Assembly: GCA_024239055.1 (NCBI GenBank) | Contig: JANBVJ010000003.1 | Location: 504 to 64,503, forward strand | Reading direction: 5' to 3' | Source of the DNA: Patescibacteria group bacterium | GTDB lineage: Bacteria > Patescibacteriota > Minisyncoccia > Minisyncoccales > UBA10102 | DNA length: 64,000 bases | In this document: positions 37,021-58,240 of the stretch, one piece after another | Layout of the letters: each line of letters starts with the position of its first letter | How positions within the stretch are numbered: position 1 is the first letter of the stretch | Program-made: the position numbers and the translations under genes | Notes under the pieces: model-generated | Databases searched by the model: none | What the model was told of the DNA's origin: nothing | The model's input: the letters and a program-made list of their open reading frames with translations, nothing else

Positions 37021-37112
37021 AATTTCAAATCACTACGTAGTATATTTGAATTGTTCGTTTATGTGAACAAACAATAAAACATATACTACTACTACTACTA
37101 ATTTACTTAATG
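37021..37112 (+). promoter_or_regulatory. Promoter/operator cassette A
   Basis: AATTTCAAAT-ca-CTACGTAG-ta-TATTTGAATT; TTGTTC-N8-GAACAA (37051-37070); ACATATA box (37079-37085); (ACT)x5 (37085-37099); ATG 37110, about 28 nt from the box centre. Confidence 0.65.
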
Positions 37113-37268
37113 GTAGCAAACAAAAATCGAGTTAGCAACTCACAAAAATCGGAAGAGAAAAAATTTAGTATGAATGAAACTGAATTATTAGAATCTAGTA
37201 GATTAAGAAAAATATTTTCTGAGCAAAATTTAGAATCAACCAAACTAGGAAAGAGGTTTTACGTTTGA
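37110..37268 (+). CDS. first-gene small protein of cassette A (52 aa)
   Basis: MVANKNRVSNSQKSEEKK...; N-terminus and its DNA are near-identical to those of 40140; TTGA junction to the next gene. Confidence 0.45.
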   Translation: MVANKNRVSNSQKSEEKKFSMNETELLESSRLRKIFSEQNLESTKLGKRFYV

Positions 37269-38029
37269 GTCAAAAAACAAAAAGAAAGAGAACAAGAAAT
37301 TGCGGTAAAAGAGCAAAATTAAATTCTCAAGGTTTTAAGACTTACAAAAATTTTAGAATATACATTGCTGAGACATCTAATGGAGGCTATAGTAGAAATC
37401 CTAAACCAGCACCTAGATCACAAATTGTAGATATAGTTAGAGATCTATGGAATAATGACAAGTCAGTAAAAGCAATGCGTAAACACATTAAAGAAATTAG
37501 TATTAGATATACACAAAACGGTATTGCTGGTACATGGTTTAAAGAAAAACAAAAAATAGTTGTTAACGATAACGGAAGAGATACAATTCCATTTTACAAA
37601 TCAGTTTTAATTCACGAAATAGTTGGTCACACATTTTGGGATTTTTCAAGAAAATATAGAAGATTAGAATTAATTGAATTTAACAAACTTGCAAATAAAT
37701 TATCTCCAGTTAGCACCTATGTAAAAAAACATACTGATGAGTGGAAAAAAATTAATGATGAATATGACGACTTAGAACAATTTGAAAAGAGTATTGAACA
37801 TATTCCAGACTATGATGCATCCGAAGAGTTAACTAAAGAATATCAAACAAAACAAGAATCATTTGATGAAAATAGAAAAACAAACGGTCATGATTTAATG
37901 ACACGTTATGCTAATGAACAACATAGCGCAATTACTGAAATTGTTTATGGATCAAACGGTCATGACACTATACTAGATCAAGAGAACATTGATAAATTAA
38001 TCAAACTGTGGGAAGGTTTACACTATTGA
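37265..38029 (+). CDS. HExxH metallopeptidase-like protein
   Basis: TTG start; KSVLIHEIVGHTFWDF. Confidence 0.55.
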   Translation: MSQKTKRKRTRNCGKRAKLNSQGFKTYKNFRIYIAETSNGGYSRNPKPAPRSQIVDIVRDLWNNDKSVKAMRKHIKEISIRYTQNGIAGTWFKEKQKIVVNDNGRDTIPFYKSVLIHEIVGHTFWDFSRKYRRLELIEFNKLANKLSPVSTYVKKHTDEWKKINDEYDDLEQFEKSIEHIPDYDASEELTKEYQTKQESFDENRKTNGHDLMTRYANEQHSAITEIVYGSNGHDTILDQENIDKLIKLWEGLHY

Positions 38030-38538
38030 AAATTAAGAGAGGATTATTTTCAAGGCATTCAATAACATCTCATACGTTTGGAGATGGCATTGAAGATAAA
38101 ATTGAAACTTACGAGTCTCCAACTATTGAAGGCGTTATTAAAATGGCAAAAAAAGGATTTATTGAACATTTTAAAAAACTAAAGTATGAAGAGAATTATA
38201 TTATAATTGATCTCGAAGGTTCAAACGATAAAGTTGAAATCTTTAAGGAAAAAGAATTTTCCGATGGCTTTGAAGATTCTAGTAAAACTGTCAAAACATG
38301 GTTAGTAACAAGAAGTAAAAAACAAAATAGAGAAATTATAAGTCAACTTAAAAATTTTAGAAATCCAAAATATGAAAATAATCCAGAATGTGAGTTTTGT
38401 TACAAAAAAGTTACTCAGGTATTCAAGGATCATTTACTCAATGATGCAAAAACAGAAAAAATGGTGTGTGCTAAATGCAAAAAAGATTTAGCAATAATGA
38501 GAACTTTAGTTGAAAAAAGTGAGGCAAAAACAAAATGA
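38026..38538 (+). CDS. hypothetical protein with C-terminal zinc ribbon
   Basis: Start set at the TTGA junction 38026; CEFC...CAKC. Confidence 0.55.
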   Translation: MKIKRGLFSRHSITSHTFGDGIEDKIETYESPTIEGVIKMAKKGFIEHFKKLKYEENYIIIDLEGSNDKVEIFKEKEFSDGFEDSSKTVKTWLVTRSKKQNREIISQLKNFRNPKYENNPECEFCYKKVTQVFKDHLLNDAKTEKMVCAKCKKDLAIMRTLVEKSEAKTK

Positions 38539-38759
38539 ATTTAAGTACACGAAGGAAAAAATTTATTTTAAATGCTAATCTTAGTGATTATAAATTAGCA
38601 AGATTTCATTTAAACAAATACTACGAATCAATAATAGCATGGGATAAAAGATACGGTAATAATCATACTTTAGATGAATTATTATCGTATGGTGATAAGT
38701 CATTTATCAAAATGTTTGAAATAGCAGAAAAGAAATTTTTAGAGGGATTAAAAAATTGA
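38535..38759 (+). CDS. hypothetical protein
   Basis: 74 aa; ATGA overlap. Confidence 0.5.
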   Translation: MNLSTRRKKFILNANLSDYKLARFHLNKYYESIIAWDKRYGNNHTLDELLSYGDKSFIKMFEIAEKKFLEGLKN

Positions 38760-39217
38760 GTTTTAAAAAGATTGTACCATGCACAGAAGAGATCAAACAA
38801 AAAGCAATTCACTTTGATAACATGATAAACGAAAAACCTTTGCGACTCTATACAATCAGACCAAATAATTTATTTGGATTAAAAGGAGGGTTAGTATTTA
38901 CTGGAAATTCATTAGATAAGGCAGTTGAAAAAGTAATTGATAACGCATTGCCTTTAGCATTCTTTAAAGTTGACGATCAAGAAGAGAGAATAAAAATTTT
39001 AAGAAAAATAAAAAATGTTGCTAAAGCATTAACCCTTGATAATGTTATAATTGGATTAAACGGAAAAAAGAGATCTGAGGCATGGATTGAAACTGCTTAT
39101 GATGTTGAAAAAGGAGATACATTAAGGTATGACGATCTAGATTTTGATAATAAATTAAATGAATGCTATTTCTATTGTCTAGAAAAAAACGAAGAAAAAT
39201 GGGTGAATGAAGATTGA
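38756..39217 (+). CDS. hypothetical protein
   Basis: 153 aa; TTGA overlap. Confidence 0.55.
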   Translation: MSFKKIVPCTEEIKQKAIHFDNMINEKPLRLYTIRPNNLFGLKGGLVFTGNSLDKAVEKVIDNALPLAFFKVDDQEERIKILRKIKNVAKALTLDNVIIGLNGKKRSEAWIETAYDVEKGDTLRYDDLDFDNKLNECYFYCLEKNEEKWVNED

Positions 39218-39402
39218 TCGTTAAATGTATGAATACTTCATGTAATAAGATCATTGATGTAAGAGAAAAAGAAATTCATCTCAAAGTTTTTCATCCTAAC
39301 TACATTAGTTTAGTTAGAACAACAAAAAATTATCCAGATCTAAATAGATTCATGACTCCAAAACAAATTATCCAAAGTGTTTTTGAGGTAGTAACAAACT
39401 GA
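39214..39402 (+). CDS. small Cys2-His2-like protein
   Basis: TTGA overlap; KCMNTSCNKIIDVREKEIHLKVFHP. Confidence 0.5.
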   Translation: MIVKCMNTSCNKIIDVREKEIHLKVFHPNYISLVRTTKNYPDLNRFMTPKQIIQSVFEVVTN

Positions 39403-39641
39403 CTTTATCAACAAGTACAATACAAAAAGCAAAAACTCTAGTTAAGAAGGGATTTGTTAAGGTAGATCAAGATTCAGACTTTGTATTTTATGTTAGATCG
39501 AGTAGTGGTGGACATTACAAAGTAGAATACTTAAAAAATAATAACAAGTTTGATCTTTATTGTGAGTGTGACGGATGGAAATATAATCAAGATTGTTCAC
39601 ACTGTCATGCAGTTAGGATATTCAAAGGAGGCAAAAAATAG
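39399..39641 (+). CDS. SWIM zinc-finger protein with no canonical start codon
   Basis: Hand translation: (L)TLSTSTIQKAKTLVKKGFVKVDQDSDFVFYVRSSSGGHYKVEYLKNNNKFDLYCECDGWKYNQDCSHCHAVRIFKGGKK*. CxC-x9-CxH = SWIM. The open frame begins at 39387 with no ATG/GTG/TTG; CTG at 39399 forms a CTGA junction. Confidence 0.55.
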   Translation: MTLSTSTIQKAKTLVKKGFVKVDQDSDFVFYVRSSSGGHYKVEYLKNNNKFDLYCECDGWKYNQDCSHCHAVRIFKGGKK

Positions 39642-39771
39642 ATTGAATCTCAATATTTTCAATACTTTATGTTGTACTTTGATCTCTATGATAGTTGGAG
39701 GATCAATTAGTGTCTCAATGTTAGGAGTTTTTCAATAATTCCTAAAATTTTCAATATTCTCTAAATTTATG

Positions 39772-39843
39772 AAAAAACTCAAAAAAAGTAAAAAAATCTA
39801 AAAAAAGTTAAAAAAACCAAAAAAACCAAAAAAACCAAAAAAA
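39772..39843. repeat. Eight phased A-tracts (A6-A7 every 9-10 bp)
   Basis: A-runs start at 39772, 39781, 39790, 39800, 39810, 39819, 39828 and 39837, including (AAAAAAACC)x3. Confidence 0.85.
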
Positions 39844-40051
39844 TCCAGATTTTCAAGTTTTTGCGCCAAAACCTCAAAACACTCAGATCGTGACTGTATA
39901 GAGGCTATTTTGGCTAAACCTTCAAAAATCCCTCAAATCTCAAAAAACTGGTTATTTTTTCTTTATTTTTAGAAAAAAAGTAAAATTTGGGTTATTTTCA
40001 TTTTTTTAAGGAAATTTGGGATTTTTCTTAGTATTTGGCAATTTAGGCAAA

Positions 40052-40142
40052 AATTCAAAAACCCTACGTATAGGAATTGAATTGTTGTTCAAATTGAACA
40101 AACAATGCTTAATAACTACCACTACTACCAATTATGTTAATG
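40052..40142 (+). promoter_or_regulatory. Promoter/operator cassette B
   Basis: AATTCAAAAacc-CTACGTAT-aggAATTGAATT; perfect 17 bp palindrome TTGTTCAAATTGAACAA (40085-40101); TTAATAA (40109-40115); ACTACC/ACTAC repeats; ATG 40140. Confidence 0.65.
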
Positions 40143-40484
40143 GTAGACAAACAAAATCGAGTTAGCAACTCACAACAAATCTTTCAAACGAAAGAAGATC
40201 GAACAGAGTCAATAACTTTGTTAAAGAATGCAACAAATATTGTTGAAAAACCTTTTTCAGAGCAATTAGACTTGGTTGAATCTCTTAGCATTCTAAACGA
40301 TGAAGAGAGAAAAATAGTTGATCTTAGTGCATGTTGGTTTATCCAGTATGATAATAACACATACTTGGTACAATCAAACAAACTAAAAGATCAGTTAATT
40401 CCTAAAGGATCAACTGCAATTCGATCAAATCAAAGTGGACAACTACTTAGAATCTCAGCAGTTTCAGGAGGTTCAGGACTGTAG
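40140..40484 (+). CDS. first-gene protein of cassette B
   Basis: Start set at ATG 40140: MVDKQNRVSNSQQIF... (paralogous N-terminus to 37110). Confidence 0.55.
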   Translation: MVDKQNRVSNSQQIFQTKEDRTESITLLKNATNIVEKPFSEQLDLVESLSILNDEERKIVDLSACWFIQYDNNTYLVQSNKLKDQLIPKGSTAIRSNQSGQLLRISAVSGGSGL

Positions 40485-40700
40485 ATGTCTCTACCAACTT
40501 TTTTTACTAATCAAATCTATTATTGTATAGAAAATCACGATAACGAAAATCCTTTGAATGAAGGTAAACACAATTTTATTTATGTAGAGAATTTTGGCTT
40601 ATCATGTGAATTTTGTTTTTTACCAACTGAAAAAGCAAATTATAAACCAATGAAAAGAAAATCTAACAATAAATTTTATTTTGTTGAGGTAGAAAATTAA
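40485..40700 (+). CDS. hypothetical protein
   Basis: 71 aa; ATG directly after the upstream stop. Confidence 0.5.
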   Translation: MSLPTFFTNQIYYCIENHDNENPLNEGKHNFIYVENFGLSCEFCFLPTEKANYKPMKRKSNNKFYFVEVEN

Positions 40701-43085
40701 ATGACTGTAGAAAAATATACTCCAACTATTAGGAAGGAAAAAGTTTTAGATATTCAAGGTACAAACTACGAATCTAAATTAGATTCAATTATGAATAAAG
40801 AGGGATTTATCAAAACAAGATTGAATGAAGAGGTAATTATTCAAGCGGTATCTCACAAATTGTATAAAGATCCAGAGTCAGGATTAAGAGAACTATACAA
40901 TAATGAGGCTTATCATGGTTGTTTAGTAGCAAAAACAAAACACAATGAAAAAAACGCATACATCAAAGTCTCATTAAACACAACAACTAGAAAATTAATC
41001 ATTCAAGGTTTTAACTCATTAGGAATTACGGAAGAGGTTTTTACAGAAATTTTAACTGAATTAGGTACATCAGGTAATAAAGACAGAACTAAAACTGGTA
41101 AATTCGGTATGGGTTTTGCATCATACACAAAGTTATCAGACATTATGATTTTAGAGACTGAATGTATTAATGGAGATTGTTATGCAGTATTGGCTAAAGG
41201 AGGATTAGGATTTCAAAAACTTCCTAAACCAAAATTAGAAAAGACTGGTACACGATTAACTTTAACACTACGAAAAGATGTTAACTTTGAAAAATTAGTT
41301 AGCATGTTATCTAATCTTGGAATGACATCTGGAATTACAACTTACTTTGAATTAGAATCTCCAAAATCAATTAATGAATTCAAATCTGGAATATACACAC
41401 TTGAACAATTTAGTTACAAACAAATTTTTGACAATATGAATAATGCAAGTTCAGATCATTATTCCTATTTAAAATCAAGTCTAGTAAATGACCAAGTTGA
41501 AGTTCATTTAAGTTTAGCAGTTGATAGTAACGGTTCATTAAAAAATGACAGAAATAAGAAATTTTATCTTTGTAATAGTCCTATTCAAGTTCTATTAGAT
41601 GAAGATTCAACAAGTGACAGAGCATACAATCTTGATGAGGATGAAGATTCAGACGAATACAAATTAGCAGAACAAGAAAGAGATAATTATAAAACAACTA
41701 GAATTGATGAAATTGAATTTGCAAATTTAGTTGTTAACATGAAGGATGAGGATCTTTTTGAACCTATGCAAGATCGAGAAAGAACAACTAAAGATGCGGA
41801 AAAAAGATTAAGAAAAATTATAGTTGATTTGTATAATGAGACTTTGAAAAAAATAAAACCATGTGAGAGTTTAGATTCATGGTTCAATCATGAACACAAA
41901 TATTTTATTTCATCTAGTGAGGCAGATATAGTTTCAATTCTAGATGACAAGTCAAAAACAATTCAAAAATTCCTTAACACTAAAGTTATGGAATATGATC
42001 TCGATGGTAGAATAAAATATGATACTAAAGAATTAAAAGACATTATTGAAAATTCTGAAAATTACTTTTACGTAAACAAAAAAGATAAGAGAGTAACAAC
42101 TCTACTTGAAGAAAACTTTGAAGATTTCTTTTTAGTTATGGTACATCCAGATAAGGAACCATATTTTGAAAACAAAACTCTATACAATGACACAATTAAG
42201 ACTTTGAAATATTTCAAATTCAATGAGGCAAAACAGTATTGTAAAGATCATGACTTTAAGGCAAAAAGAGTTCTTGGAGAAAAAGAAGATCGAACAAGTG
42301 AGGATATAGTTCTGCATTATTCTGATACAAATAATTCTTATTCTGGTTATGGACATTCAGACACATACGGAGAATACACAAAAACGGTTAGATTAGGATC
42401 AGATGACTTTGAAGATCATAAAAGTCTAATTATTCAAGTTGCTCCATTCTCTTGTTACAGAGATGTTTTAAAACAATTCAAAACTGATTATTATCTTGCA
42501 AGTGAAAAAAAGAATATAGATGCACAAACTTTAATTGAACTTCAAAAAAATCTAAAAGAAAAATTTGCAAAATGGGAGTCTAATCATGAATTTGTAACAC
42601 TTGAAAAAATTCTAAAGTACAAACAAGTTACATTAAACTTTGAGTGTTTTGAAAATAGCCATGAAGATTCAACTAAAGGATTAAGTGAAATTCCAAAAAA
42701 TAAATTGTATATTGTTGGAGGATCTAAAAGTCTGTTTGAGTTAGCATTAATTCTAATTTATAATGGTGTTGACTACGAAATAACCAATGAGTCTTTAGAT
42801 GGATATTACAAACCTAAAGTAAAGGCTTTAGAAAAAACTCTAAACTTAATTGGTGAGGATCTTTATGAAGGAAAATTTGACGATATATTTCTGTATGAAA
42901 AGTATCTACTAAAGGTTAGATCATTTGAAATTAAAGTTCAAGATCCAATTCTTAGGAAATTATTCAAGTTAAGTCATGATGAAAAGAATCTAAAAGAAAT
43001 TTCAAACGACATTATAACTCTAAACGAAAAATACAAAATTGAAAAACCAGTCCTTAACAGAAAAGAATCGGAGTATATATCATAG
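40701..43085 (+). CDS. GHKL (Hsp90/MORC-like) ATPase-domain protein
   Basis: 794 aa. LRELYNNEAYHG (N-box-like), KLIIQGFNSLGITEEVFTEILTELGTSGNKD (compare Hsp90 LxIxDxGIGMTxxEL..NLGTIAxSGT), GKFGMGFASYTKLSD (compare GQFGVGFYS). Confidence 0.6.
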   Translation: MTVEKYTPTIRKEKVLDIQGTNYESKLDSIMNKEGFIKTRLNEEVIIQAVSHKLYKDPESGLRELYNNEAYHGCLVAKTKHNEKNAYIKVSLNTTTRKLIIQGFNSLGITEEVFTEILTELGTSGNKDRTKTGKFGMGFASYTKLSDIMILETECINGDCYAVLAKGGLGFQKLPKPKLEKTGTRLTLTLRKDVNFEKLVSMLSNLGMTSGITTYFELESPKSINEFKSGIYTLEQFSYKQIFDNMNNASSDHYSYLKSSLVNDQVEVHLSLAVDSNGSLKNDRNKKFYLCNSPIQVLLDEDSTSDRAYNLDEDEDSDEYKLAEQERDNYKTTRIDEIEFANLVVNMKDEDLFEPMQDRERTTKDAEKRLRKIIVDLYNETLKKIKPCESLDSWFNHEHKYFISSSEADIVSILDDKSKTIQKFLNTKVMEYDLDGRIKYDTKELKDIIENSENYFYVNKKDKRVTTLLEENFEDFFLVMVHPDKEPYFENKTLYNDTIKTLKYFKFNEAKQYCKDHDFKAKRVLGEKEDRTSEDIVLHYSDTNNSYSGYGHSDTYGEYTKTVRLGSDDFEDHKSLIIQVAPFSCYRDVLKQFKTDYYLASEKKNIDAQTLIELQKNLKEKFAKWESNHEFVTLEKILKYKQVTLNFECFENSHEDSTKGLSEIPKNKLYIVGGSKSLFELALILIYNGVDYEITNESLDGYYKPKVKALEKTLNLIGEDLYEGKFDDIFLYEKYLLKVRSFEIKVQDPILRKLFKLSHDEKNLKEISNDIITLNEKYKIEKPVLNRKESEYIS

Positions 43086-43094
43086 GTTATTATC

Positions 43095-44490: not shown

Positions 44491-44520
44491 TTACTGTTAC
44501 TAACCTATTAACTCTCGACT

Positions 44521-44580
44521 GTTTGTTCACTTTGAACACACAACTCTTTAATACTACAACTACTACTACTACTACTAATG
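44521..44580 (+). promoter_or_regulatory. Promoter/operator cassette C
   Basis: TTGTTC-acttt-GAACA (44523-44538); CTTTAATA box (44546-44553); (ACT)x6 (44559-44576); ATG 44578. Confidence 0.6.
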
Positions 44581-45171
44581 GAAAACAACCAAACCATGAC
44601 CGTAGAATCGGAGGCAGAAAAATTGAATAGAAAAGAAAGGAAAAATCAAATCTCAGAAATTTGGAGAGAATTACCATTAAATTATAGAAAATATTTTGCT
44701 CTTTGTGATGACTGTGGTGTTATAGAAAGATACGGTTCAATGTTCTATGCGGAAAGAGCATCAAAAAAACATGAAGGATATAAAAAATACGCTGGTCATA
44801 TAGCACATGCAGAATGTAAACCACAATTCATTAAGACACATCAAATTCAAGGTTCAAAACCAAACATACAGAGAAATTGTGACTTAGAAAGATTACTAGA
44901 AGATCCAGAAAATCAAAAATTATTTACTTTACACACTTCGGATCTTATCTTAGCAAATTTTGTTGACGAAATATCATACCAGTTAAGAAAGAAAAAAGAT
45001 CCAAACTTTTTTGGTTCAAAATATTGGTATGACATTATAGAAAGAGGAGATTCAGTAGAAAGAGAACTACAGAGAAGGAAAAAAGAAGATGAGGTTGCAG
45101 TTTCATCTTTAGCATTCCCAATACAACTTTCAAAAACGATCAAGGCTTTACCAGAGGTAATTGTAAGATGA
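44578..45171 (+). CDS. first-gene protein of cassette C
   Basis: MENNQTMTVESEAEKL...; shares the 23 nt block GACCGTAGAATCGGAGGCAGAAA with 52973; CDDCG motif. Confidence 0.6.
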   Translation: MENNQTMTVESEAEKLNRKERKNQISEIWRELPLNYRKYFALCDDCGVIERYGSMFYAERASKKHEGYKKYAGHIAHAECKPQFIKTHQIQGSKPNIQRNCDLERLLEDPENQKLFTLHTSDLILANFVDEISYQLRKKKDPNFFGSKYWYDIIERGDSVERELQRRKKEDEVAVSSLAFPIQLSKTIKALPEVIVR

Positions 45172-45707: not shown

Positions 45708-45709
45708 AA

Positions 45710-46039
45710 ATGAATCAAAAACAATTCCTAGAATCAGGAAATTATTTAATTGATGAAGTCAAAACAAGAGCAGAAAAAGGATCACCATACTTTTTCAGTC
45801 CTGCAACAATGAGAGGATTTTCAAGTCGTTTAAGTGAACTGTGCTGGCGTTCAGGCGAAAAAATTTACTTCATAACAAGTGAAGCCGATAAAGATTACAT
45901 AAAACATTCTGGATCGGTTCGTCAATGGACTGTAAGATATATTTCATTAGACGGAAATATTGAAACATTAGGAAAATTCCAAGAACATCAAAATCTTAAC
46001 GATGCAAGAAGAGCAGTAAAAGAGGCTTTAGTACATTGA
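45710..46039 (+). CDS. hypothetical protein
   Basis: 109 aa; motif GSPYFFSPATMRGFSSR. Confidence 0.55.
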   Translation: MNQKQFLESGNYLIDEVKTRAEKGSPYFFSPATMRGFSSRLSELCWRSGEKIYFITSEADKDYIKHSGSVRQWTVRYISLDGNIETLGKFQEHQNLNDARRAVKEALVH

Positions 46040-46773: not shown

Positions 46774-46774
46774 A

Positions 46775-49089: not shown

Positions 49090-49099
49090 GGTTAATAAC

Positions 49100-51597: not shown

Positions 51598-51643
51598 GTA
51601 AAGATAACAAGTTAATAACCATACAGTTAGAGGTAGAGAACTA

Positions 51644-51918: not shown

Positions 51919-52046
51919 GTTTTCAAGCACCATTATGCAAAAGTTGTTTTCACACTGATCCAGATTACTCTTCACTTGGAGTCAACGAAAAAGGAATAAT
52001 CAAGTTAAAGTGTGTACACTGTGGAGCAGTTTCGGAGAAAGATTAG
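51915..52046 (+). CDS. mini-gene d: 43 aa zinc-ribbon peptide
   Basis: MSFQAPLCKSCFHTD...KCVHCGAVSEKD*. Confidence 0.35.
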   Translation: MSFQAPLCKSCFHTDPDYSSLGVNEKGIIKLKCVHCGAVSEKD

Positions 52047-52080
52047 ATTGAAACAAACTTCATCCGATGGGAACAGAAAA

Positions 52081-52314
52081 ATGAAATTTTACGATTACGA
52101 TATTGTTCAATGCAGATGGTGTTACAAAAATATTCCAAGACAAGATGCCAAATTAAGTCAATCAGATGAAGATAAACCAGAACATTATGAGTTGAATCCA
52201 CGAAATGAAAAAGATGTTTATTTTGACGAAAACGGTAAAAGATTATGGGTTTATTGTAGTGACTGTGATAAAGAGATAATTGAAGCAAATAGGGATGATT
52301 TTTCAATTGAGTGA
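52081..52314 (+). CDS. zinc-ribbon protein
   Basis: Start set at ATG 52081 (MKFYDYDIVQCRWCYKN...CSDCDKE); the track GTG start overlaps mini-gene d. Confidence 0.45.
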   Translation: MKFYDYDIVQCRWCYKNIPRQDAKLSQSDEDKPEHYELNPRNEKDVYFDENGKRLWVYCSDCDKEIIEANRDDFSIE

Positions 52315-52513
52315 AAAGAAAACTAAAACAGAGATTTTGGAGGATATAGATCAATACATGGAGGAATGTTGCATTAACATCTTTGAAAACCTTCAAGCAA
52401 ACGAAGTCACCCTAAATGGAGAGGAGATCCTCCGATCAGCAGATGAGTTCTATAAGAAATTAGATCATCAAAACAACAAAGTCATCGTTACAGGAGACGG
52501 TAAATTTGCCTAG
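52307..52513 (+). CDS. hypothetical protein
   Basis: Start set at in-frame TTG 52307 (MSEKKTKTEILEDID...). Confidence 0.45.
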   Translation: MSEKKTKTEILEDIDQYMEECCINIFENLQANEVTLNGEEILRSADEFYKKLDHQNNKVIVTGDGKFA

Positions 52514-52582
52514 TTTGTTCATAAGTTATAGAGAAAACAATATAAGATATACTACTACTACCAAAGGTGTAGAATTACTATG
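52511..52582 (+). promoter_or_regulatory. Promoter cassette D (degenerate)
   Basis: GTTTGTTC half-site, TATAAGATAT box, (ACT)x3, AGGTG SD-like, ATG 52580. Confidence 0.45.
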
Positions 52583-52711
52583 AGTCAGGTACATGAAAGA
52601 AAGGTGCATTGTGATAACTGTGGCTACTCTTGGGTATCAAAGTCAGATATGATTATGATTACATGTCCAAGTTGTATGCGCAAAGTCAATACTGAGAAGA
52701 AACGTAAGTAA
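52580..52711 (+). CDS. 43 aa zinc-ribbon protein (paralog of 57799..57918)
   Basis: MSQVHERKVHCDNCGYSWVSKSDMIMITCPSCMRKVNTEKKRK*. Confidence 0.45.
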   Translation: MSQVHERKVHCDNCGYSWVSKSDMIMITCPSCMRKVNTEKKRK

Positions 52712-52800
52712 ATTCGGTCAACTAACTGTTTAGGTGGAACAGGGGAAATGCTTCTTTCGGATAACGAAATTTTTTGTTAATTTACGCCCAATATTTTTTC

Positions 52801-52975
52801 TAAACCGCTACGTAGCATAATTGAAATTCAATCAGGCATCAAAACAGGAAAAAACTAAAGTCGATTTTTGTCGTTACCTGCACCTGCTGGATAACGCTGA
52901 GTCACGAACAGAAGGTGTTCAGCAAAAAGCACATACAATACTTTATAACTACTACTATAACTACTACTACCAATG
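52801..52975 (+). promoter_or_regulatory. Promoter/operator cassette E
   Basis: CTACGTAG (52808-52815) + TTGAAATTC; GAACA-gaagg-TGTTC (52906-52920); CTTTATAA box (52941-52948); ACT repeats; ATG 52973, about 28 nt from the box centre. Confidence 0.6.
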
Positions 52976-53068
52976 GCTAAGAACAACCATAAGACCGTAG
53001 AATCGGAGGCAGAAATCAGCATAGTGATTCTTGACGAATCACAGACCATAAGAGGTCAGAAAAATTGA
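52973..53068 (+). CDS. first-gene small protein of cassette E (31 aa)
   Basis: MAKNNHKTVESEAEISIVILDESQTIRGQKN*; N-terminus paralogous to 44578; TTGA junction. Confidence 0.35.
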   Translation: MAKNNHKTVESEAEISIVILDESQTIRGQKN

Positions 53069-53505
53069 GTGATATGAAATTAGCATTCAAGGTAGTAAAC
53101 CAAATTGGTATTGACAGACTTTGTGCTGAAACAAAGGATGGAGATGATTTGTTTACTATTGAACCATACTTGAATTGCAGAGAAAAAGGTTTTGCAATTA
53201 CTCAGAATGTATTACCAAACGGAAAGTTCGTTCATCCATTTGAAGAATGTAAAACAGTAGTGTTTTCACAACATAGGAGAACAGATGAACTTGTAGTTTT
53301 TGTAGGAACAAGAAAATGGTTTGATGACGGTAAACAATTCTTACCTTGTGGAGACAAACACTTCGTTCCTAGTAATGAGACTTGGGAAAGACAAGATCCA
53401 ACAAATAGATTTTCACCAACAAAATTACAAGATGCAGTAAAATTCATTGAGAATGAATTAGGATTGCCTCAAGTGTTAGAAGTATTGGAGGTTAAACAGA
53501 ATTGA
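53065..53505 (+). CDS. hypothetical protein
   Basis: 146 aa; TTGA overlap. Confidence 0.55.
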   Translation: MSDMKLAFKVVNQIGIDRLCAETKDGDDLFTIEPYLNCREKGFAITQNVLPNGKFVHPFEECKTVVFSQHRRTDELVVFVGTRKWFDDGKQFLPCGDKHFVPSNETWERQDPTNRFSPTKLQDAVKFIENELGLPQVLEVLEVKQN

Positions 53506-54011
53506 CTTTAGATTATCTTCATTGTAAGAGACACTTCAACAGTTCAGTAAAGTTAGATCCAGTAGTAGCAGAAATGTTTGAAGATAACGAAAAAGAAGGT
53601 CGTATAGAATACATTCCAAAGGGTAAAGGATGCGATATTGTTATTGGTGGAAAAAACGGAAAGGAATGTGGTAAACAACCATTTGCTATAATCAAGTACA
53701 AAATAGATTATGAGGCAAGTGAACAAGGAGAAATGTATCCTATTGATTCATTAAGATGGTATGATGGTAAACCAATAAAACTAACAAAGAAAGAGGCAAA
53801 AAATATTGATTATGATGTATTTTGTGATTTATGTAAAAAGGTAATACCATTCAAAAAGGAAAAAGAAAATAAAATTGACGAAGGAAAACTAATTTTCCAT
53901 TTAGTAACGGTTCATCATGATGACATACCAAAGAAAAAACATATTCATTTGAGTCCACTGGTAAGAAAGCATTTCCAATTCTATGAAAAAGGCTTGGAGG
54001 TTTTATGTTAA
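53502..54011 (+). CDS. Cys/His-rich hypothetical protein
   Basis: 169 aa; TTGA overlap; FCDLCKK...HLVTVHHDD. Confidence 0.55.
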   Translation: MTLDYLHCKRHFNSSVKLDPVVAEMFEDNEKEGRIEYIPKGKGCDIVIGGKNGKECGKQPFAIIKYKIDYEASEQGEMYPIDSLRWYDGKPIKLTKKEAKNIDYDVFCDLCKKVIPFKKEKENKIDEGKLIFHLVTVHHDDIPKKKHIHLSPLVRKHFQFYEKGLEVLC

Positions 54012-54167
54012 ATGTTTGGTTTTGGTAAAATATTACTTGGAATATTGATTGGAGTTTTTGTTCTTCCATTCATATTTGCTGATCCACTTGGTACATTTGA
54101 AACAATTCAAGGTGTAATAGAAAAATTAAGTGAACTTGGTGGCGCAATAGGAGGTTCTACAGATTGA
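54012..54167 (+). CDS. small membrane protein (51 aa), paralog of 54709
   Basis: MFGFGKILLGILIGVFVLPFIFADPLGTFETIQGVIEKLSELGGAIGGSTD*. Confidence 0.4.
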   Translation: MFGFGKILLGILIGVFVLPFIFADPLGTFETIQGVIEKLSELGGAIGGSTD

Positions 54168-54280
54168 TTAACGAAATAATTGGAACAATTTGTTACTTTA
54201 TCATGAAGAGAACAGATCCAGAATGGACAAAACAGGAAGAAGAGAAGTACAAGTTCAAGGAGGAAAAACAATATGACTAA
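54164..54280 (+). CDS. hypothetical small protein (38 aa)
   Basis: TTGA overlap; hand translation MINEIIGTICYFIMKRTDPEW... Confidence 0.3.
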   Translation: MINEIIGTICYFIMKRTDPEWTKQEEEKYKFKEEKQYD

Positions 54281-54551
54281 ACAATTAACTCATCTTGAAT
54301 ATGTAATTAATAACATAAAAGACAAAGACGATGCTTTTCATATTAAACAATTGATTAGTCTAGCAGATAGAGTAAAACTACATACAGGAACATTGAACAA
54401 TGGAAAAAAGTTTTATGAAGATAAACAAGCACTTGAAACTTTACAATATGCGGTTGATGAAATAGATCGATATTGTGTTGCGTTAGTTAAGTTAGGTAAA
54501 TTCATCGATTACATACCAAATAGACAACATTATGGGGAGGAATACGATTGA
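54273..54551 (+). CDS. hypothetical protein
   Basis: 92 aa; AGGAGG upstream. Confidence 0.5.
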   Translation: MTKQLTHLEYVINNIKDKDDAFHIKQLISLADRVKLHTGTLNNGKKFYEDKQALETLQYAVDEIDRYCVALVKLGKFIDYIPNRQHYGEEYD

Positions 54552-54712
54552 CTGTAATAAAAATAGAAGAAGGAGATAAATTAATTGCTGATGAAGGTAT
54601 ATCTGAATGGATTGTAAAAAGAGATTATGATTTCAATCCAGTCTTAGAACTGTTACCGTTTGATGAGAAAGCACATCAAAAGAGATTGAAGAATGGAGAT
54701 TATGAAAATTGA
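54548..54712 (+). CDS. hypothetical small protein (54 aa)
   Basis: TTGA at both ends. Confidence 0.4.
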   Translation: MTVIKIEEGDKLIADEGISEWIVKRDYDFNPVLELLPFDEKAHQKRLKNGDYEN

Positions 54713-54867
54713 GTTTCTTAGGATTTTTCAGTCCATTTAGAATTCTAACTGGAATGATCTTAACAGCATTCATAATTACACCAGTAATTGCTGATCCAGC
54801 AGAAACATTCACGACAGTTTCAGAATTTATTGCGAAACTGTCACCAATTTTTGAGGGTGGTGTTTAG
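54709..54867 (+). CDS. small membrane protein (52 aa), paralog of 54012
   Basis: MSFLGFFSPFRILTGMILTAFIITPVIADPAETFTTVSEFIAKLSPIFEGGV*. Confidence 0.4.
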   Translation: MSFLGFFSPFRILTGMILTAFIITPVIADPAETFTTVSEFIAKLSPIFEGGV

Positions 54868-55035
54868 ATGGGATTAAGAAGTGCTTGGAAAGAAGATGGA
54901 ATTCGCAGACTTGAAGATGAACTGGAATTCAATCAAGACATGTTTGATACATACGGAGATCAAGAGTACAAAGACATGATTATAAGAATTAAACAAGAAC
55001 TTGACGAAGAAAGAGCAGACTTGGAGGAATTATAA
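54868..55035 (+). CDS. hypothetical small acidic protein (55 aa)
   Basis: ATG directly after the upstream TAG. Confidence 0.4.
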   Translation: MGLRSAWKEDGIRRLEDELEFNQDMFDTYGDQEYKDMIIRIKQELDEERADLEEL

Positions 55036-55037
55036 AG

Positions 55038-55196
55038 TTGAGTATTTGTGATTTCTGTAAAAACGAGAATGCTACTTGGTTGTCAGCAAGTGTACATGCA
55101 GACTGTTTGAATTGGGGAGATGGAGAACACATCAATCCAATAGATCAAAGAGAGTGCGATTGTAATTGTTGTTATCCACAGGAGATAAGAAATTGA
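55038..55196 (+). CDS. small Cys-rich protein (52 aa)
   Basis: TTG start; MSICDFCKNENATW...ECDCNCCYPQ. Confidence 0.4.
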   Translation: MSICDFCKNENATWLSASVHADCLNWGDGEHINPIDQRECDCNCCYPQEIRN

Positions 55197-55345
55197 ATTT
55201 AGAAATAAGAATCAGTTTATCAGAAAAGGAACAAAAGAAAGTATTCAGTTTCTTGAGAGGACTTGATGCAGAATTTATGGTTTATAATGCAGTAGGAGAT
55301 CGAATTTACTCTACTTATGAGGGAGATAAAATTGATCATAGGTAG
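55193..55345 (+). CDS. hypothetical small protein (50 aa)
   Basis: TTGA overlap. Confidence 0.35.
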   Translation: MNLEIRISLSEKEQKKVFSFLRGLDAEFMVYNAVGDRIYSTYEGDKIDHR

Positions 55346-56420
55346 AGACATTACAAAGGAAGATCAGAGTGTTAGAGAAGGATACTTAAAGAAAGTAGAC
55401 TTTGAATTAGATGTTCCAACATTCTTGAAAACCCATTCATTCCTACAATCAATAACAGGACATGGAAAAACAAATCTAATCTTAAATATTGTAGACGGTT
55501 TAATTCAAGAAAGACCAGACATTCAATTAGTATTCCTAGATGATCAAGAAGAGTTTACATTCATTCCAAGAAAATACAAGAACGTAATTCTAATTTCAAA
55601 GGACAGAACTCCGAATATATTTACAACAAAACATGCATTTGAGTTAGGAAAACAATCAAGAAAGAACGGACAGTCATTAGTTCTCAAACTTTCAGACTTT
55701 GCAAAAAGTGAAGATAAAGAATTGTTTGTAGCGAATTTTCTTGACGGATTCAAGTCAGAAGGAAAGAAGATTGGTACACCATGTTTATTGATAATTGATG
55801 AGGCAGATCTATTTGTTCCAACAAGATCAAAACGAAAGAACGTTGTTTCAAGGGATCCTATTATTTGGTATTGTAAGAGGGCTAGAAAATTAAATATTTC
55901 AGTCTTACTTGCAACACAATACTCATCGGCAGTTGATATTGATGCAAGAAGAGAGATGGAAAATTACTTCATTGGTAAAACAAAACAAAGAACAGATAGA
56001 AATGCAGTTTGTGAGATGTTAGGAGATAATTCAATCTTTGACAACTTAGGATGGGGATTAAAGAAAGGTCAGTTCTATGTTAGAGGAGATGCATTATCAA
56101 AGGATCTGACATTATTACTAACTAAAGAAACTAAAATAGAAAAAAGACTTGCAGGAGTTGACGAAGAGAAATCTTATTCAGACTTGTCAAAGATCTATGA
56201 AGAATCTATCACAGGACATCAAAATCTATCTCTAATTGAAATGTTACAAAAGAAAATTAACGACTTGGAAAAAGAATTGACTGTAACAAAGTCAAAGGAA
56301 TTGACAGACGAAATACGTAAACACTTGATTGACATGGGATTCAATGATGGACTAAGGAAAGCAAAGGAACAGTACGAGACAGACAAAGGAAAGTTCACTA
56401 GATTTGTGGAGAAGTTGTAA
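55317..56420 (+). CDS. HerA/FtsK/VirB4-type P-loop ATPase
   Basis: Walker A SITGHGKTN; Walker B CLLIIDEADLFVP; LLATQYSS. The true start may be TTG 55332 (GAGGGA upstream). Confidence 0.65.
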   Translation: MREIKLIIGRDITKEDQSVREGYLKKVDFELDVPTFLKTHSFLQSITGHGKTNLILNIVDGLIQERPDIQLVFLDDQEEFTFIPRKYKNVILISKDRTPNIFTTKHAFELGKQSRKNGQSLVLKLSDFAKSEDKELFVANFLDGFKSEGKKIGTPCLLIIDEADLFVPTRSKRKNVVSRDPIIWYCKRARKLNISVLLATQYSSAVDIDARREMENYFIGKTKQRTDRNAVCEMLGDNSIFDNLGWGLKKGQFYVRGDALSKDLTLLLTKETKIEKRLAGVDEEKSYSDLSKIYEESITGHQNLSLIEMLQKKINDLEKELTVTKSKELTDEIRKHLIDMGFNDGLRKAKEQYETDKGKFTRFVEKL

Positions 56421-56613
56421 ATTGGTTCTTTATTACCAAAATTTCAACTGTGCTGAATGTAAACAAGATTTTGGTTCATGTAAGGCATCAACTTGTAGAC
56501 TTAATCGTTATGGAAAAGTCATTTGTAGTTGTTGCACTTGGAATATTGAAAACATGGATGATTACAAATCATTCAAAGAACGAGAAAAGATAGGAGTTGC
56601 TAATAGGTTATGA
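56404..56613 (+). CDS. Cys-rich small protein
   Basis: NCAECKQDFGSCKASTC...CSCCTWN. Confidence 0.45.
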   Translation: MWRSCKLVLYYQNFNCAECKQDFGSCKASTCRLNRYGKVICSCCTWNIENMDDYKSFKEREKIGVANRL

Positions 56614-56741
56614 ACATTAAGCCAATAACAAAACCAGTTGATCAAAAGAAACTTTTGGATGATGATTTCAAAGAACTAGACGAATCAATTGACAATCTAA
56701 GAAAAAAAATGCAAAAATGGAAGGAGACTAGATCACAATGA
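56610..56741 (+). CDS. hypothetical small protein (43 aa)
   Basis: ATGA at both ends. Confidence 0.35.
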   Translation: MNIKPITKPVDQKKLLDDDFKELDESIDNLRKKMQKWKETRSQ

Positions 56742-56935
56742 AAGTAAAACGAAAGATAATTCCAGAAGATCAAACCAGATTGATTGACGACAATACAGCA
56801 ATTGTAAAGTTTAGTGACTTGACTAATCCAAAACTAAATCCAACTTTAAGATTAGATGCAGACTTTGCAATTAAACTTGCAAAGAAAATAGAAAAACAAA
56901 ACAAAAAAGACATTGTAGGAGAGGAAGGATATTGA
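56738..56935 (+). CDS. hypothetical protein
   Basis: 65 aa; ATGA overlap. Confidence 0.45.
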   Translation: MKVKRKIIPEDQTRLIDDNTAIVKFSDLTNPKLNPTLRLDADFAIKLAKKIEKQNKKDIVGEEGY

Positions 56936-57039
56936 CAGGAAAGTATCCACAACAAATTGTTGAAGAATACAAAGAAGAAATTGCATCTAGACTTACTGCA
57001 CAGAGACTTCGAAATTTAATTTGGGAGGAAATAAAGTGA
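56932..57039 (+). CDS. hypothetical small protein (35 aa)
   Basis: TTGA start; GTGA end. Confidence 0.3.
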   Translation: MTGKYPQQIVEEYKEEIASRLTAQRLRNLIWEEIK

Positions 57040-57575
57040 CTAGAAAGATTGCAAGAAAAAGCAGAATACTCCAAATGGAAGAGATGAAACTAAAGTTATT
57101 TGAAAAGAATGGTAAGAACAAGGAGAATAGACATTATCTATACCAAAAGTGGTTTCTTGATAAAGCAAAGTTATACACAGTAGTAAATGAAGAATTATCA
57201 AAAAAGGTTTCAGATAACATTAATGCAAAAATAAAACAATGCTATCATAACTGTTGGAATGCAGTTAATTCATTTCCAGACTTGGAGTATTGTGAAGGTT
57301 ATTCATTCAGTGAAGATATTCCGATTCCAATAGAACATAGTTGGTTACTAAATTCAGGAGGAAATGTAATTGATCCTACTTTGGTCATTAATGGAAAATC
57401 ATTAGAAAAACAATTAAAAAAATACGGTGTTAATAATTCAACAGAAAGAGAAAGAAGAATTGGTTCAGAGTATTTGGGAATAAAGTACACACTAAAACAG
57501 TTAAACAAATTTGCATTAGAGACAAAGAAAACAGGATCTTTTCTCTATCTATTATACAGGGAGGAAAACAAATGA
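57036..57575 (+). CDS. papain/transglutaminase-like Cys-His-Asp signature protein
   Basis: Start set at the GTGA junction 57036. QCYHNCWNAV...CEGYSF...IPIEHSWLLNSGGNVIDPT resembles the C...H-x-W...D core of transglutaminase-like peptidases. Confidence 0.5.
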   Translation: MTRKIARKSRILQMEEMKLKLFEKNGKNKENRHYLYQKWFLDKAKLYTVVNEELSKKVSDNINAKIKQCYHNCWNAVNSFPDLEYCEGYSFSEDIPIPIEHSWLLNSGGNVIDPTLVINGKSLEKQLKKYGVNNSTERERRIGSEYLGIKYTLKQLNKFALETKKTGSFLYLLYREENK

Positions 57576-57802
57576 CAGGAATAATTATCTGTGATGGTTG
57601 TGGAGTTCCATTCTTTGCGCATGGTAGTGAAAAAAACTTACCAGATTATCTCAAAGGACTTCCATTGTTTATGGGAATAAGAAAACTAAAAGCAACTGAG
57701 GTTCAACGTAAAGGTCAAAGCGGTTACAGTAGAACAGCATACACAAGATTCCTTGATCTTTGTCAAGAGTGTGAAAGAAAAGAGAGGTTAGAAAAAAGAT
57801 GA
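57572..57802 (+). CDS. zinc-ribbon protein
   Basis: ATGA overlap; CDGCG...CQECERK. Confidence 0.5.
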   Translation: MTGIIICDGCGVPFFAHGSEKNLPDYLKGLPLFMGIRKLKATEVQRKGQSGYSRTAYTRFLDLCQECERKERLEKR

Positions 57803-57918
57803 GAGTACACTGTAAACATTGTAATTATGAATGGGATACTAAAGTTACCAAAGTCTTTGTGACTTGCCCAAGTTGTTTGAGAAAAATTAAACTCGAAGAG
57901 TCGGAGGTTACAGTATAA
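57799..57918 (+). CDS. 39 aa zinc-ribbon protein (paralog of 52580..52711)
   Basis: MRVHCKHCNYEWDTKVTKVFVTCPSCLRKIKLEESEVTV*. Confidence 0.4.
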   Translation: MRVHCKHCNYEWDTKVTKVFVTCPSCLRKIKLEESEVTV

Positions 57919-57919
57919 A

Positions 57920-58201
57920 ATGTTAGAATGTGCATTTTGTGGCAATGCAAATGTAGAAAAGATTACAGACGAACATTACAACTGTTCTATCTGTGGATTT
58001 GGATGGAACGGTAAACAACCAGCAAATATGACTAAGCATTTACAGAGAATTATAAATTTAACAAAGTATTTGATAGTTCAAAACCCTACAAAGTCTAGAG
58101 ACGAGATAACAAATATTGTAATGGAAAAATTACATGCAATAGAAAATCATCCAGTAGATAAATTTGGATATTGCGAGTATTGCAATACGAGGTTCGAGTA
58201 A
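57920..58201 (+). CDS. zinc-ribbon protein
   Basis: CAFCGN...CSICG...CEYC. Confidence 0.5.
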   Translation: MLECAFCGNANVEKITDEHYNCSICGFGWNGKQPANMTKHLQRIINLTKYLIVQNPTKSRDEITNIVMEKLHAIENHPVDKFGYCEYCNTRFE

Positions 58202-58240
58202 AATGCTTAATAACTACCACTACTACCAATACTTAATGAT
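58202..58240 (+). promoter_or_regulatory. Promoter cassette F
   Basis: The 29 nt AATGCTTAATAACTACCACTACTACCAAT (58202-58230) is identical to 40104-40132. ATGATG at 58236 lies about 28 nt from the TTAATAA centre. Confidence 0.55.

Follow-up and report, generated by a model that had tools for sequence, protein, structure and literature searches.

Several operons in the right half of a 64-kb stretch of DNA (contig JANBVJ010000003.1, positions 504 to 64,503; hereafter the window) begin with similar intergenic sequences, which raises the question of what these sequences do. An earlier note had listed six such cassettes (A to F), consisting in their full form of two palindromes (pal1 and pal2), a TATA-like box, a run of ACT/TAC trinucleotides and an ATG, and had interpreted them as archaeal leaderless promoters. 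All six were confirmed at their coordinates by reading the sequence, and a seventh (G), absent from the earlier list, was found upstream of a gene for an MscS-like channel. The evidence presented below makes it likely that the cassette is a class-specific, regulator-controlled leaderless promoter module of host type, carried by a thaumarchaeal virus-like element. The seven copies are the following (ORF, open reading frame; E, the value obtained in the profile search described below; type-1 and type-2 elements are conserved segments downstream of the ATG).

Cassette A, 37024..37145, + strand: pal1 TTCAAAT-CA-CTACGTAG-TAT-ATTTGAA 37024-37050; pal2 TTGTTC-N8-GAACA 37051-37069; GAACAAACAA 37065-37074; AT-box ACATATA 37079-37085; (ACT)5 37085-37099; ATG 37110, opening a 52-aa ORF coupled via a TTGA overlap to 37265-38029; type-1 element ~37122-37145; E = 1e-11.
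Cassette B, 40054..40175, + strand: pal1 (CTACGTAT) 40054-40081; perfect 8+1+8 palindrome TTGTTCAAATTGAACAA 40085-40101; GAACAAACAA 40096-40105; TATA TTAATAA 40109-40115; tract ACTACCACTACTACC 40115-40129; ATG 40140 (alternative 40134), opening a 114-aa ORF followed by the gene for a 794-aa Hsp90-like protein; type-1 element ~40152-40175; E = 6e-15.
Cassette C, 44523..44622, + strand: pal2 TTGTTCACTTTGAACA 44523-44538; GAACACACAA 44534-44543; TATA TTTAATA 44547-44553; tract ACTACAACT(ACT)5 44553-44576; ATG 44578 (197-aa ORF); type-2 element ACCGTAGAATCGGAGGCAGAAAAA 44599-44622; E = 3e-16.
Cassette D, a leadered variant, 52514..52582, + strand: TTTGTTC 52514-52520; AT-box TATAAGATAT 52541-52550; tract ACTACTACTACC 52551-52562; Shine-Dalgarno (SD)-like AAGGTG 52564-52569; ATG 52580 (43-aa zinc-ribbon ORF).
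Cassette E, 52796..53017, + strand: oligo-T 52794-52799; pal1 core CTACGTAG 52808-52815 (~135 nt upstream of the box); GAACAGAAGGTGTTC 52906-52920; GCACATACAA 52929-52938; TATA TTTATAA 52942-52948; tract (ACT)3-ATA-(ACT)3-ACC 52948-52970, a 12-nt unit x2.2; ATG 52973, opening a 31-aa ORF coupled via a TTGA overlap to 53065-53505; type-2 element 52994-53017; E = 6.5e-16.
Cassette F, 58202..58238, + strand: 29-mer shared with B 58202-58230; TATA TTAATAA 58207-58213; tract 58213-58227; ATG 58236, whose ORF has only 32 aa and runs into the SNF2 helicase gene beginning at 58288; E = 3e-7.
Cassette G, 35343..35421, + strand: (GTAGAG)n 35343-35364; TATA-like TTTTATC 35386-35392; tract ACTACTACC 35409-35417; ATG 35419, MscS-like gene; E = 6e-6.

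The ACT/TAC run, which the earlier note had counted as a part of the cassette, is exclusive within the 64 kb to the cassettes and to the coding strand. Exact (ACT/CTA/TAC)n runs of at least three units occur only at 37084, 44559, 52550, 52948 and 52960, and the degenerate version ACTACCACTACTACC only at 40115 and 58213, in all cases on the + strand; period-3 arrays were reported by Tandem Repeats Finder only at 37084, 44552 and 52948. Every cassette copy is intergenic, lies on the coding strand and stands immediately 5' of an ATG. The similarity between cassettes was also recovered by an unguided repeat search, including the 29-mer common to B and F, which is identical in the two as had been claimed. 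When a sequence-only profile trained on 28 cassettes (D excluded) was searched against 528 kb, it matched A, B, C, E, F and G as well as the untrained D (E = 0.008), and found no other site at E < 0.1 on the + strand of the window and none at all in 12 thaumarchaeal chromosomal loci. The window thus has seven cassettes, and its relatives (designated below by L numbers) have 4-8 each.

Two of the cassettes have conspicuous surroundings. Between an ACGTAG half-site and cassette G, whose orthologues are at L057:878 and L072:3167, there is a (GTAGAG)3-4 hexamer repeat (35343-35364) that is conserved in L072 (~3060-3080). An A-rich tandem array (AAAAAACCA x7.7) is located at 39772-39843, ~300 nt upstream of cassette B, and the entire intergenic region containing cassette B is ~70% identical with four relatives, which is unusually conserved for non-coding DNA.

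The arrangement of the parts was determined in 31 non-redundant cassettes from nine related metagenomic genomes, aligned at the ATG. A TATA box of consensus TTTAAWW occupies positions -31 to -25, its centre lying 28 nt before the A of the ATG and 27 nt before a conserved A at -1. The A-rich motif ACAnACAA is found at -42 to -35, the position of the TFB recognition element (BRE), with an A at -36 in 25 and at -35 in 21 of the 31 copies. Position -2 is a pyrimidine in 30/31, position -1 is A in 28/31, G follows the ATG at +4 in 23/31, and the ATG itself is invariant (31/31). Among 18 cassettes the distance from the end of ACAnACAA to the ATG was 34 nt in 13, 33 nt in two and 35 nt in three, with ACT/ACC units numbering from ~3 to 8. 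The box-to-ATG spacing is therefore constant whatever the repeat number, as the earlier note had stated, namely 34±1 nt when measured from the BRE-position motif, and it is kept in at least eight other genomes. The more specific claim that the ATG lies ~28 nt from the box centre is correct for A, B, C and E, whereas in F the distance is 26 nt; the ATG of F, placed earlier at 58235, had to be corrected to 58236.

In archaea the TATA box is located ~27 nt and the BRE ~33 nt before the start site, with an A/T-rich element near -10 and a pyrimidine at -1, and leaderless mRNAs begin with ATG in 95% of cases (PMC5316973). In the phylum Nitrososphaerota, all 11 Thaumarchaeota analysed belong to the leaderless 'group D', in which ~26 nt separate the promoter box and the start codon (PMC6028130). 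Because the TATA, BRE-position and pyrimidine-purine (Y-R) positions of the cassettes match these published benchmarks, transcription is predicted to start at the -1 A or at the A of the ATG. The archaeal leaderless geometry proposed for the cassettes is upheld in silico: the TATA centre is at -28, a Y-R initiator is at -2/-1, and the probable host phylum is leaderless.

Independent, though indirect, support for the predicted start site seems to come from two relatives, L016 and L017, in which the GAACAAACAA skeleton is situated upstream of a virus-encoded tRNA-Phe gene (profile E ~0.05). Counting on from the motif, the tRNA begins exactly at nucleotide 34, which is the position of the conserved -1 A in the cassettes. 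These tRNA-Phe (GAA) genes (L016:2978-3064 and L017:6488-6574, both on the - strand) contain 14 inserted nucleotides after the anticodon stem, possibly a non-canonical intron or else a long variable arm. Their 5' end coincides with the predicted transcription start, and the transcript may need no 5' processing. The idea that the tRNA is an integration site betraying the host was rejected, the flanking genes being equally uncharacterised viral genes.

The same TATA-to-ATG distance, with no ACT tract, is found at the operon heads at 11851, 25386 and 32528 and before the first genes of Nitrosopumilaceae spindle-shaped viruses. These observations suggest that leaderless geometry is ordinary here and that the ACT cassette marks one promoter class.

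Could the AT-box instead be the -10 element of a bacterial promoter and the tract a 5' untranslated region of ~20 nt? The sequences TAATAA, TATAAC and TATACT do resemble -10 hexamers, and the TGC preceding TTAATA in B and F resembles an extended -10. However, the number of sigma-70-like sites in the window (46) is close to the 48.3 expected and none of them is at a cassette, no -35 element was seen at a fixed spacing, and the box is 28 nt from an ATG that has no SD upstream in A, B, C, E, F and G. Bacterial-type intrinsic terminators are absent from the window, and its gene content (see below) indicates thaumarchaea and their viruses. Taken together, these data make a bacterial promoter extremely improbable.

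A start upstream of or within the tract would turn (ACU)n into an unstructured, G-free 5' leader for SD-independent translation, perhaps on read-through transcripts as well. The composition of the tract, free of G and of start codons, is what an unstructured leader would require, and C, D, F and G have no upstream oligo-T run, the archaeal termination signal, so that read-through transcripts would bear the tract before the AUG. Moreover, a leader containing an SD-like motif is evident in D-type copies: in D the ATG lies 29 nt past the start of the tract with SD-like GGTG between them, and in the copies of this type in L004, L012, L058 and L074 the distance from tract to ATG varies. On the other hand, the position ~27 nt upstream of where the tract starts is taken by pal2 and has no TATA-like box; the sole good TATA box adjoins the tract at 28 nt from the ATG and is accompanied by the Y-R initiator at -2/-1. 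The tRNA of L016 starts where the leaderless model predicts, and A, B and E keep the tract despite oligo-T runs upstream of them. We therefore consider a transcribed tract improbable.

Both palindromes are overrepresented in the 64 kb: CTACGTAG was found in four exact copies (0.10 expected) and TTGTTC-N3-10-GAACA in nine (0.87 expected). The latter enrichment agrees with the earlier inclusion of pal2 (TTGTTC-N-GAACAA) in the cassette, and the perfect 17-mer reported for B is the 8+1+8 palindrome TTGTTCAAATTGAACAA. The inverted form GAACA-N5-TGTTC described for E is present at its place but is not conserved in relatives. The extended pal1 (consensus TTCAAAT-N-CTACGTA-N-ATTTGAA) is a cassette part in A, B and E, far upstream in the last of these, but is missing from C, D and F. 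Where the cassette is full, the TACGTA core of pal1 is at -75 to -70 in nine of 11 copies and one base farther out in the other two. Since pal1 also occurs in three intergenic regions outside the cassettes (at 7064, 11401 and 18765), it appears to be a more general operator-like site and not a cassette-specific one. These copies, together with a second type of palindrome, are listed here.

7053..7080: pal1 outside the ACT cassettes, TTCAATTGCA-CTACGTAG-CAAATTGAA, in a long ORF-free region.
11391..11420: pal1 outside the ACT cassettes, CTACGTAG at 11401-11408, in the 700-nt ORF-free region 11149-11850.
18754..18786: pal1-like copy, TTCAAATCCC-TACGTA-CTTAGTTTGAA, then CTGTTCACTGAA, upstream of the ORF at 18844.
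32458..32475: palindrome of a second type, GTGTACGTGTCAC, preceding the leaderless promoter (without ACT tract) of the GmrSD-like gene at 32528.

The second palindrome, of general form GTGTACGTG(T/G)CA(C/G), was also found in L007 (three copies) and at L014:3670, and is possibly the operator of a different, non-ACT promoter class. Two ORF-free regions of the window (6912-7461 and 11149-11850) combine pal1 with short tandem repeats (GTCCAAA x3 at 7207, AGATCACTAGT x3.5 at 7317, (TG)9 + (AG)9 at 11082-11130) and are candidates for a replication origin or a non-coding RNA.

The arms of pal2 vary without co-variation: the right arm can be GCACA or GAACG in place of GAACA, and the left arm remains TTGTTC/T. 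A search of the window against Rfam, with the ORF-free regions included, gave no match. A structured RNA hairpin was thus rejected for pal1 and pal2 for want of compensatory changes and of an Rfam match, and the palindromes look like protein-binding sites. In archaea, sites upstream of or abutting the BRE are typical for activators or for repressors that block binding of TBP/TFB.

The most unusual part of the cassette is the sequence between the TATA box and the start. In the 31 aligned cassettes, positions -23 to -1 contain 16 G residues where 133 are expected, an 8-fold depletion, and 229 C residues where 93 are expected. The C residues peak at -3, -6, -9 (25/31), -12, -18 and -24, the phase of the repeat being constant from the TATA box to the ATG. 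Information content is 1-1.8 bits at tract positions and near 0 in the pal2 loop and the BRE-TATA linker. When 115 ATGs of these genomes with a correctly placed TATA-like box were scored for period-3 C, the distribution was bimodal, and 16 of the 17 high scorers were cassettes.

Between orthologous tracts there are substitutions and replacements of exactly 3 nt (AAA, ATA, GCA, ATT), but never a difference in length. Cassettes D, E and F have the same tracts in the window and in L006 (96% identity), and the orthologous cassettes of L058 and L074 show substitutions only, with no length change. These comparisons decide on the possibility that the tract is a contingency locus, in which slippage alters the TATA-to-start spacing and switches the operons on and off. 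Tandem repeats in promoter spacers act in this way in some bacteria, and the repeat number does vary between paralogous cassettes; yet the spacing is fixed at 34±1 nt, and neither the near-identical genomes nor the orthologues show any change of length. Phase variation is thus contradicted by the data and has next to no probability, nor is active slippage visible.

A more serious competitor is the view that the tract is a length-keeping filler, selected for composition (G-free, without start codons, with easily melted TA steps), its repeat being regenerated by replication slippage and its sequence unread. Several properties suit such a filler: the unit may be ACT or ACC, 3-nt interruptions and degenerate ACT/AAT versions are tolerated, the tract may adjoin the TATA box, AT-rich sequence then filling the gap to the ATG, or adjoin the ATG, with the total length constant, and other leaderless promoters of the same genome work without a tract. 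Against it, slippage is not visibly active, as orthologous tracts never differ in length and the window and L006 have identical tracts in three cassettes, and positions -9, -6, -3 and -2 match the TATA box in conservation.

The sister lineages also speak against an unread filler. L073 has at least eight cassettes with the skeleton TGTTTG-N-GAACAAACAA at 33-34 nt from the ATG, and these keep the non-repetitive TTATATTAGACAC at the same place in the spacer, which argues that the spacer carries sequence information. In L007 and L014 the spacer is (ACC)n-ACT. The skeleton is therefore common to the lineages, and the spacer motif is lineage-specific yet conserved among the copies within one genome. 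No lineage spacer motif of the (ACT)n, (ACC)n or TTATATTAGACAC type was found in the Nitrosopumilaceae spindle-shaped viruses. One promoter of such a virus (L076:13850-13900, BK067785.1), CTTAATAC-CTACTAC-AATAATTACTAATC-ATGGAAAAC, has a faint likeness to the cassette and to the start of type-2 ORFs, below the profile threshold.

On balance we favour, tentatively and at somewhat less than even chances, the interpretation of the ACT tract as a lineage-specific recognition element; a purely compositional, length-keeping filler is possible, if rather less so. Equally doubtful as the filler is a more far-reaching proposal, a spacer code in which a dedicated trans-acting factor, for example a thaumarchaeal TFB paralogue or a viral tandem zinc-finger/zinc-ribbon protein recognising 3 bp per module, would read the (ACT)n, (ACC)n or TTATATTAGACAC motif. 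If it were true, a core-promoter spacer would act in an archaeal virus like a promoter class of the sigma-factor type.

How much the agreement between tracts says about selection depends on the divergence of the genomes compared. The (ACT)n genomes are ~70% identical in nucleotide sequence over whole orthologous intergenic regions, as judged from BLASTN high-scoring segment pairs (HSPs), and for this reason tract agreement is weaker evidence for selection. This ~70% intergenic identity led us to withdraw an argument by which the ACT-bearing genomes had diverged too far for the conservation to be neutral; the 33-36% protein identity on which it had been based came from a paralogue. An identity profile of orthologous intergenic regions based on global alignment was uninformative (0.6-0.9 throughout, as gap-friendly scoring was applied to AT-rich DNA) and was replaced by the BLASTN HSPs.

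The conserved module does not end at the start codon. It extends ~40-45 nt beyond the ATG, and two types can be distinguished by the downstream sequence. Type 2 (C, E and the equivalents of F in L012 and L004, which carry the type-2 element) begins with MAKNNHKTVESEAEK and continues with unrelated sequence in ORFs of 15-201 aa. In its codons 8-15 (+22 to +45, ACC GTA GAA TCG GAG GCA GAA AAA) third positions are essentially invariant, four-fold degenerate sites included; changes are confined to first and second positions, and the similarity ends at +45. The same pattern of conservation was seen for AAAATCGAGTTAGCAACTCACAA in type 1 (A, B), and L057 retains the nucleotides though the reading frame shifts. 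Since codons 8-15 vary at positions 1/2 and not at position 3, the constraint appears to act on the nucleotide sequence and not on the protein.

Part of this conservation can be explained by the GGAGG at +34, which lies 9-10 nt before a long out-of-frame gene in three of 17 type-2 copies and before an in-frame TTG in two more. As a general Shine-Dalgarno sequence it was rejected, because it fits only 3-5 of the 17. A CCG/CGG mini-hairpin in the type-2 element was uninformative, having 3 bp and no variation in an alignment judged by eye. Leader ORFs often end in a TTGA stop/start overlap; in total, 15 TTGA and 19 ATGA overlaps were counted in the window. TTG is a common coupled start codon on the + strand of the window, often in the context AAATTGAGT.

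The extension into the coding sequence might suggest that the cassettes do not act as promoters at all but were left behind passively by segmental duplication or mark recombination joints. The copies do include the first 13-15 codons of the downstream gene, and the sharp limits of BLASTN similarity between paralogous cassettes (~-90 to +40 for type 1, -57 to +44 for type 2) resemble duplication junctions. Such remnants, however, would hardly keep five elements at a rigid spacing in at least eight other genomes and at orthologous positions, nor stand in every instance in an intergenic position on the coding strand directly 5' of an ATG. In addition, the conserved positions coincide with known promoter elements, and the lineage variants retain the skeleton. 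The refuting condition named in the earlier note, a lack of conserved spacing in relatives, thus does not hold. The explanation is accordingly very unlikely, and a promoter module with a conserved transcribed segment is the reading we retain. If that is correct, the cassette with its conserved +1 to +45 would be a natural portable unit of promoter and leaderless start, pasteable before arbitrary genes.

The nature of the element and of its host was considered next to the promoter data. The window has ~32% GC, all its plausible genes are on the + strand, cumulative GC skew rises steadily across it, and no tRNA genes are present within the 64 kb. The majority of its proteins are without a family match. 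Recognisable ones are an SNF2 helicase, a HerA/Zot-like ATPase, GmrSD_N, an MscS-like channel, an MT-A70 methylase, an HNH nuclease, a DUF7447 protein and the 794-aa protein (40701-43085) with an Hsp90-like GHKL ATPase domain; window proteins matched 27 viral families in PHROGs, mostly of unknown function. Deposited phage and archaeal-virus genomes gave no match by megablast (10 kb) or by tblastn (ATPase, 794-aa protein). Relatives were found solely in metagenomes and have in common the one-strand layout of small genes, 29-36% GC and a conserved gene order. A survey of thaumarchaeal mobile elements (PMC6563490) mentions neither these genes nor any promoter motif.

Two independent lines led us to treat the window as a virus-like element of Nitrososphaerota. 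The 794-aa family was found at 12 loci in named genomes, 11 of which are Nitrososphaerota, mainly Nitrosopumilaceae, and the best matches of the DUF7447 protein (45710-46039) are two genomes of Nitrosopumilaceae spindle-shaped viruses (52% and 47% identity). The DUF7447 protein also shows 36% identity to a group of ~130-kb Streptomyces phages. The 794-aa Hsp90-like GHKL ATPase family is common in thaumarchaeal chromosomes (L060-L071 are among the loci with it). In L059, a 1.13-Mb contig, the gene stands beside paralogues and an MmeI-type restriction-modification gene in what resembles a defence island, and L058 and L074 have two copies each.

Two further gene groups attracted attention. At least 12 paralogous genes between 14723 and 32384 share an N-terminal stretch of ~27 aa, MAKGFKDxKGKF(R/H)PTGN, followed by unrelated sequence; the stretch could be a sorting, processing or packaging signal. 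In L001, L004, L058 and L073 cassette-headed operons contain a Ku homologue and an ATP-dependent DNA ligase, possibly an end-joining module; neither was detected in the window.

From these data the following mechanism can be proposed. The core would be a host-type promoter for TBP/TFB, with ACAnACAA at the BRE position, TTTAAWW at -28 and a pyrimidine-A initiator at -2/-1, from which RNA polymerase would start at the ATG or one base before it and produce a leaderless mRNA; the geometry is observed and the start site is predicted from it. In full copies the two palindromes, at rigid positions (TACGTA core at -75 to -70; TTGTTC-N-GAACA centred at ~-47 and abutting the BRE), are most likely regulator-binding sites. 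The 23-bp TATA-to-start spacer, G-free, C-rich (ACT)n of a single phase and length, may be a lineage-specific core-promoter element. It would overlie the region contacted by TFB/TFE and melted by the polymerase, and might be read by a co-evolving factor, either a repressor at the polymerase site or a particular TFB paralogue. In this way the ACT spacer could give the operons with DNA-metabolism genes and the MscS-like gene a promoter class of their own, distinct from the remaining leaderless promoters of the genome. The module would continue to ~+45 as a nucleotide-conserved 5' segment fused to unrelated genes, a portable cassette for promoter and translation start, in a minority of copies of which GGAGG probably acts as a Shine-Dalgarno sequence for the next gene.

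Several points weigh against this proposal. The leaderless mRNA is predicted from geometry and comparison. The window is probably an unclassified virus-like element, its viral nature being deduced from gene content, and no capsid, portal, terminase or tail hallmarks were detected by Pfam or PHROGs in the large ORFs or in all 101 ORFs. A host among the ammonia-oxidising archaea of the Nitrososphaerota (Thaumarchaeota) is most likely, by the indirect assignment given above. No relatives turned up in IMG/VR (scans with SNF2 and the ATPase) or in GTDB genomes (scan with the ATPase). Among the 101 ORFs, Pfam detected no TBP, TFB, winged helix-turn-helix, ribbon-helix-helix or classical DNA-binding domain; zinc-ribbon matches were sub-threshold only. 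D-type copies, with a variable gap containing the SD, do not fit the leaderless scheme. Finally, the conservation of the tract among (ACT)n genomes is only modest evidence for selection, and its tolerance of ACC for ACT, of 3-nt interruptions and of placement beside the TATA box or the ATG fits a filler as well.

The closest known parallels are in crenarchaeal viruses. In SIRV2, SMV2 and the SSVs, early and anti-defence genes are preceded by virus-specific consensus regulatory sequences present in multiple copies. A strong BRE/TATA core is surrounded by flanks that each virus has of its own, and in some cases inverted repeats overlap the BRE (Bhoobalan-Chitty et al. 2024, PMC11065993). The cassettes resemble them in having many copies per viral genome, a near-identical BRE/TATA core and flanks that are conserved within a virus and variable between lineages. 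The inverted repeats overlapping the BRE in crenarchaeal viruses were proposed as repressor sites, and pal2 abuts the BRE here. Differences are that the probable host lineage here is mesophilic Nitrososphaerota, that both single genes and multi-gene operons are preceded by cassettes, that the downstream flank is a phase-locked trinucleotide repeat filling the TATA-to-start spacer, that the module runs 45 nt into the transcript, and that no Aca8-like regulator was found here.

Archaeal viruses depend on the TBP, TFB and RNA polymerase of the host, and most SIRV1/2 promoters have a virus-specific GTC directly 3' of the TATA box (work of 2004 cited in PMC5569661). The cassettes likewise have a virus-specific cis element immediately 3' of the TATA box, but in place of a single trinucleotide there are 3-8 ACT/ACC units that reach the start site and are G-free, and sister lineages use other motifs. 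Archaeal leaderless promoters in general have a TATA box at ~27 nt and a BRE at ~33 nt from the start; the cassettes have such a TATA box and, as a putative BRE, an A-rich motif of fitting position. Common to both are also a pyrimidine preceding the initiating purine and a 5'-terminal ATG, which for the cassettes is a prediction. The cassettes differ in having ACTACTACY (33% C) and not a plain A/T-rich sequence at the promoter-proximal element, and in a spacer that is repetitive and conserved as a whole.

In bicistronic translational-coupling leaders, a short leader ORF carries the SD of the next gene, and stop and start codons overlap. At L012:13231, L072:12586 and L074:13172 the type-2 module has this form, a 15-17-codon ORF with GGAGG 9-10 nt before the next start, the leader stop overlapping that start in L012 and L072 and lying one base upstream in L074. 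The likeness is limited to 3-5 of the 17 type-2 cassettes; in the remaining copies the conserved segment belongs to a longer ORF, to which it is joined in frame.

Searches of the open-access literature found no archaeal core promoter described as having a trinucleotide repeat. The earlier statement that no such promoter family had been described therefore stands for the repeat-filled spacer, whereas multi-copy viral cassettes with a BRE/TATA core are known (PMC11065993, PMC5569661). What differs here is the probable host phylum, the phase-locked G-free repeat spacer, the exchange of spacers on a retained skeleton and the conserved 5' transcribed segment.

Gene control in viruses of ammonia-oxidising archaea is almost unknown, although these hosts are central to the global nitrogen cycle. 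The TATA-to-start region is usually considered poor in sequence information. It is contacted by the TFB B-reader, the B-linker and TFE (PMC13502027), and should a factor prove to read the spacer motif, promoter classes in archaea would be definable between the TATA box and the start site. The cassette supplies exact predicted start sites and could predict operon heads and gene classes across a clade of uncharacterised elements. Thaumarchaeal genetics, which is short of tools, could also profit from a leaderless promoter that is strong and compact and brings its own 5' module.

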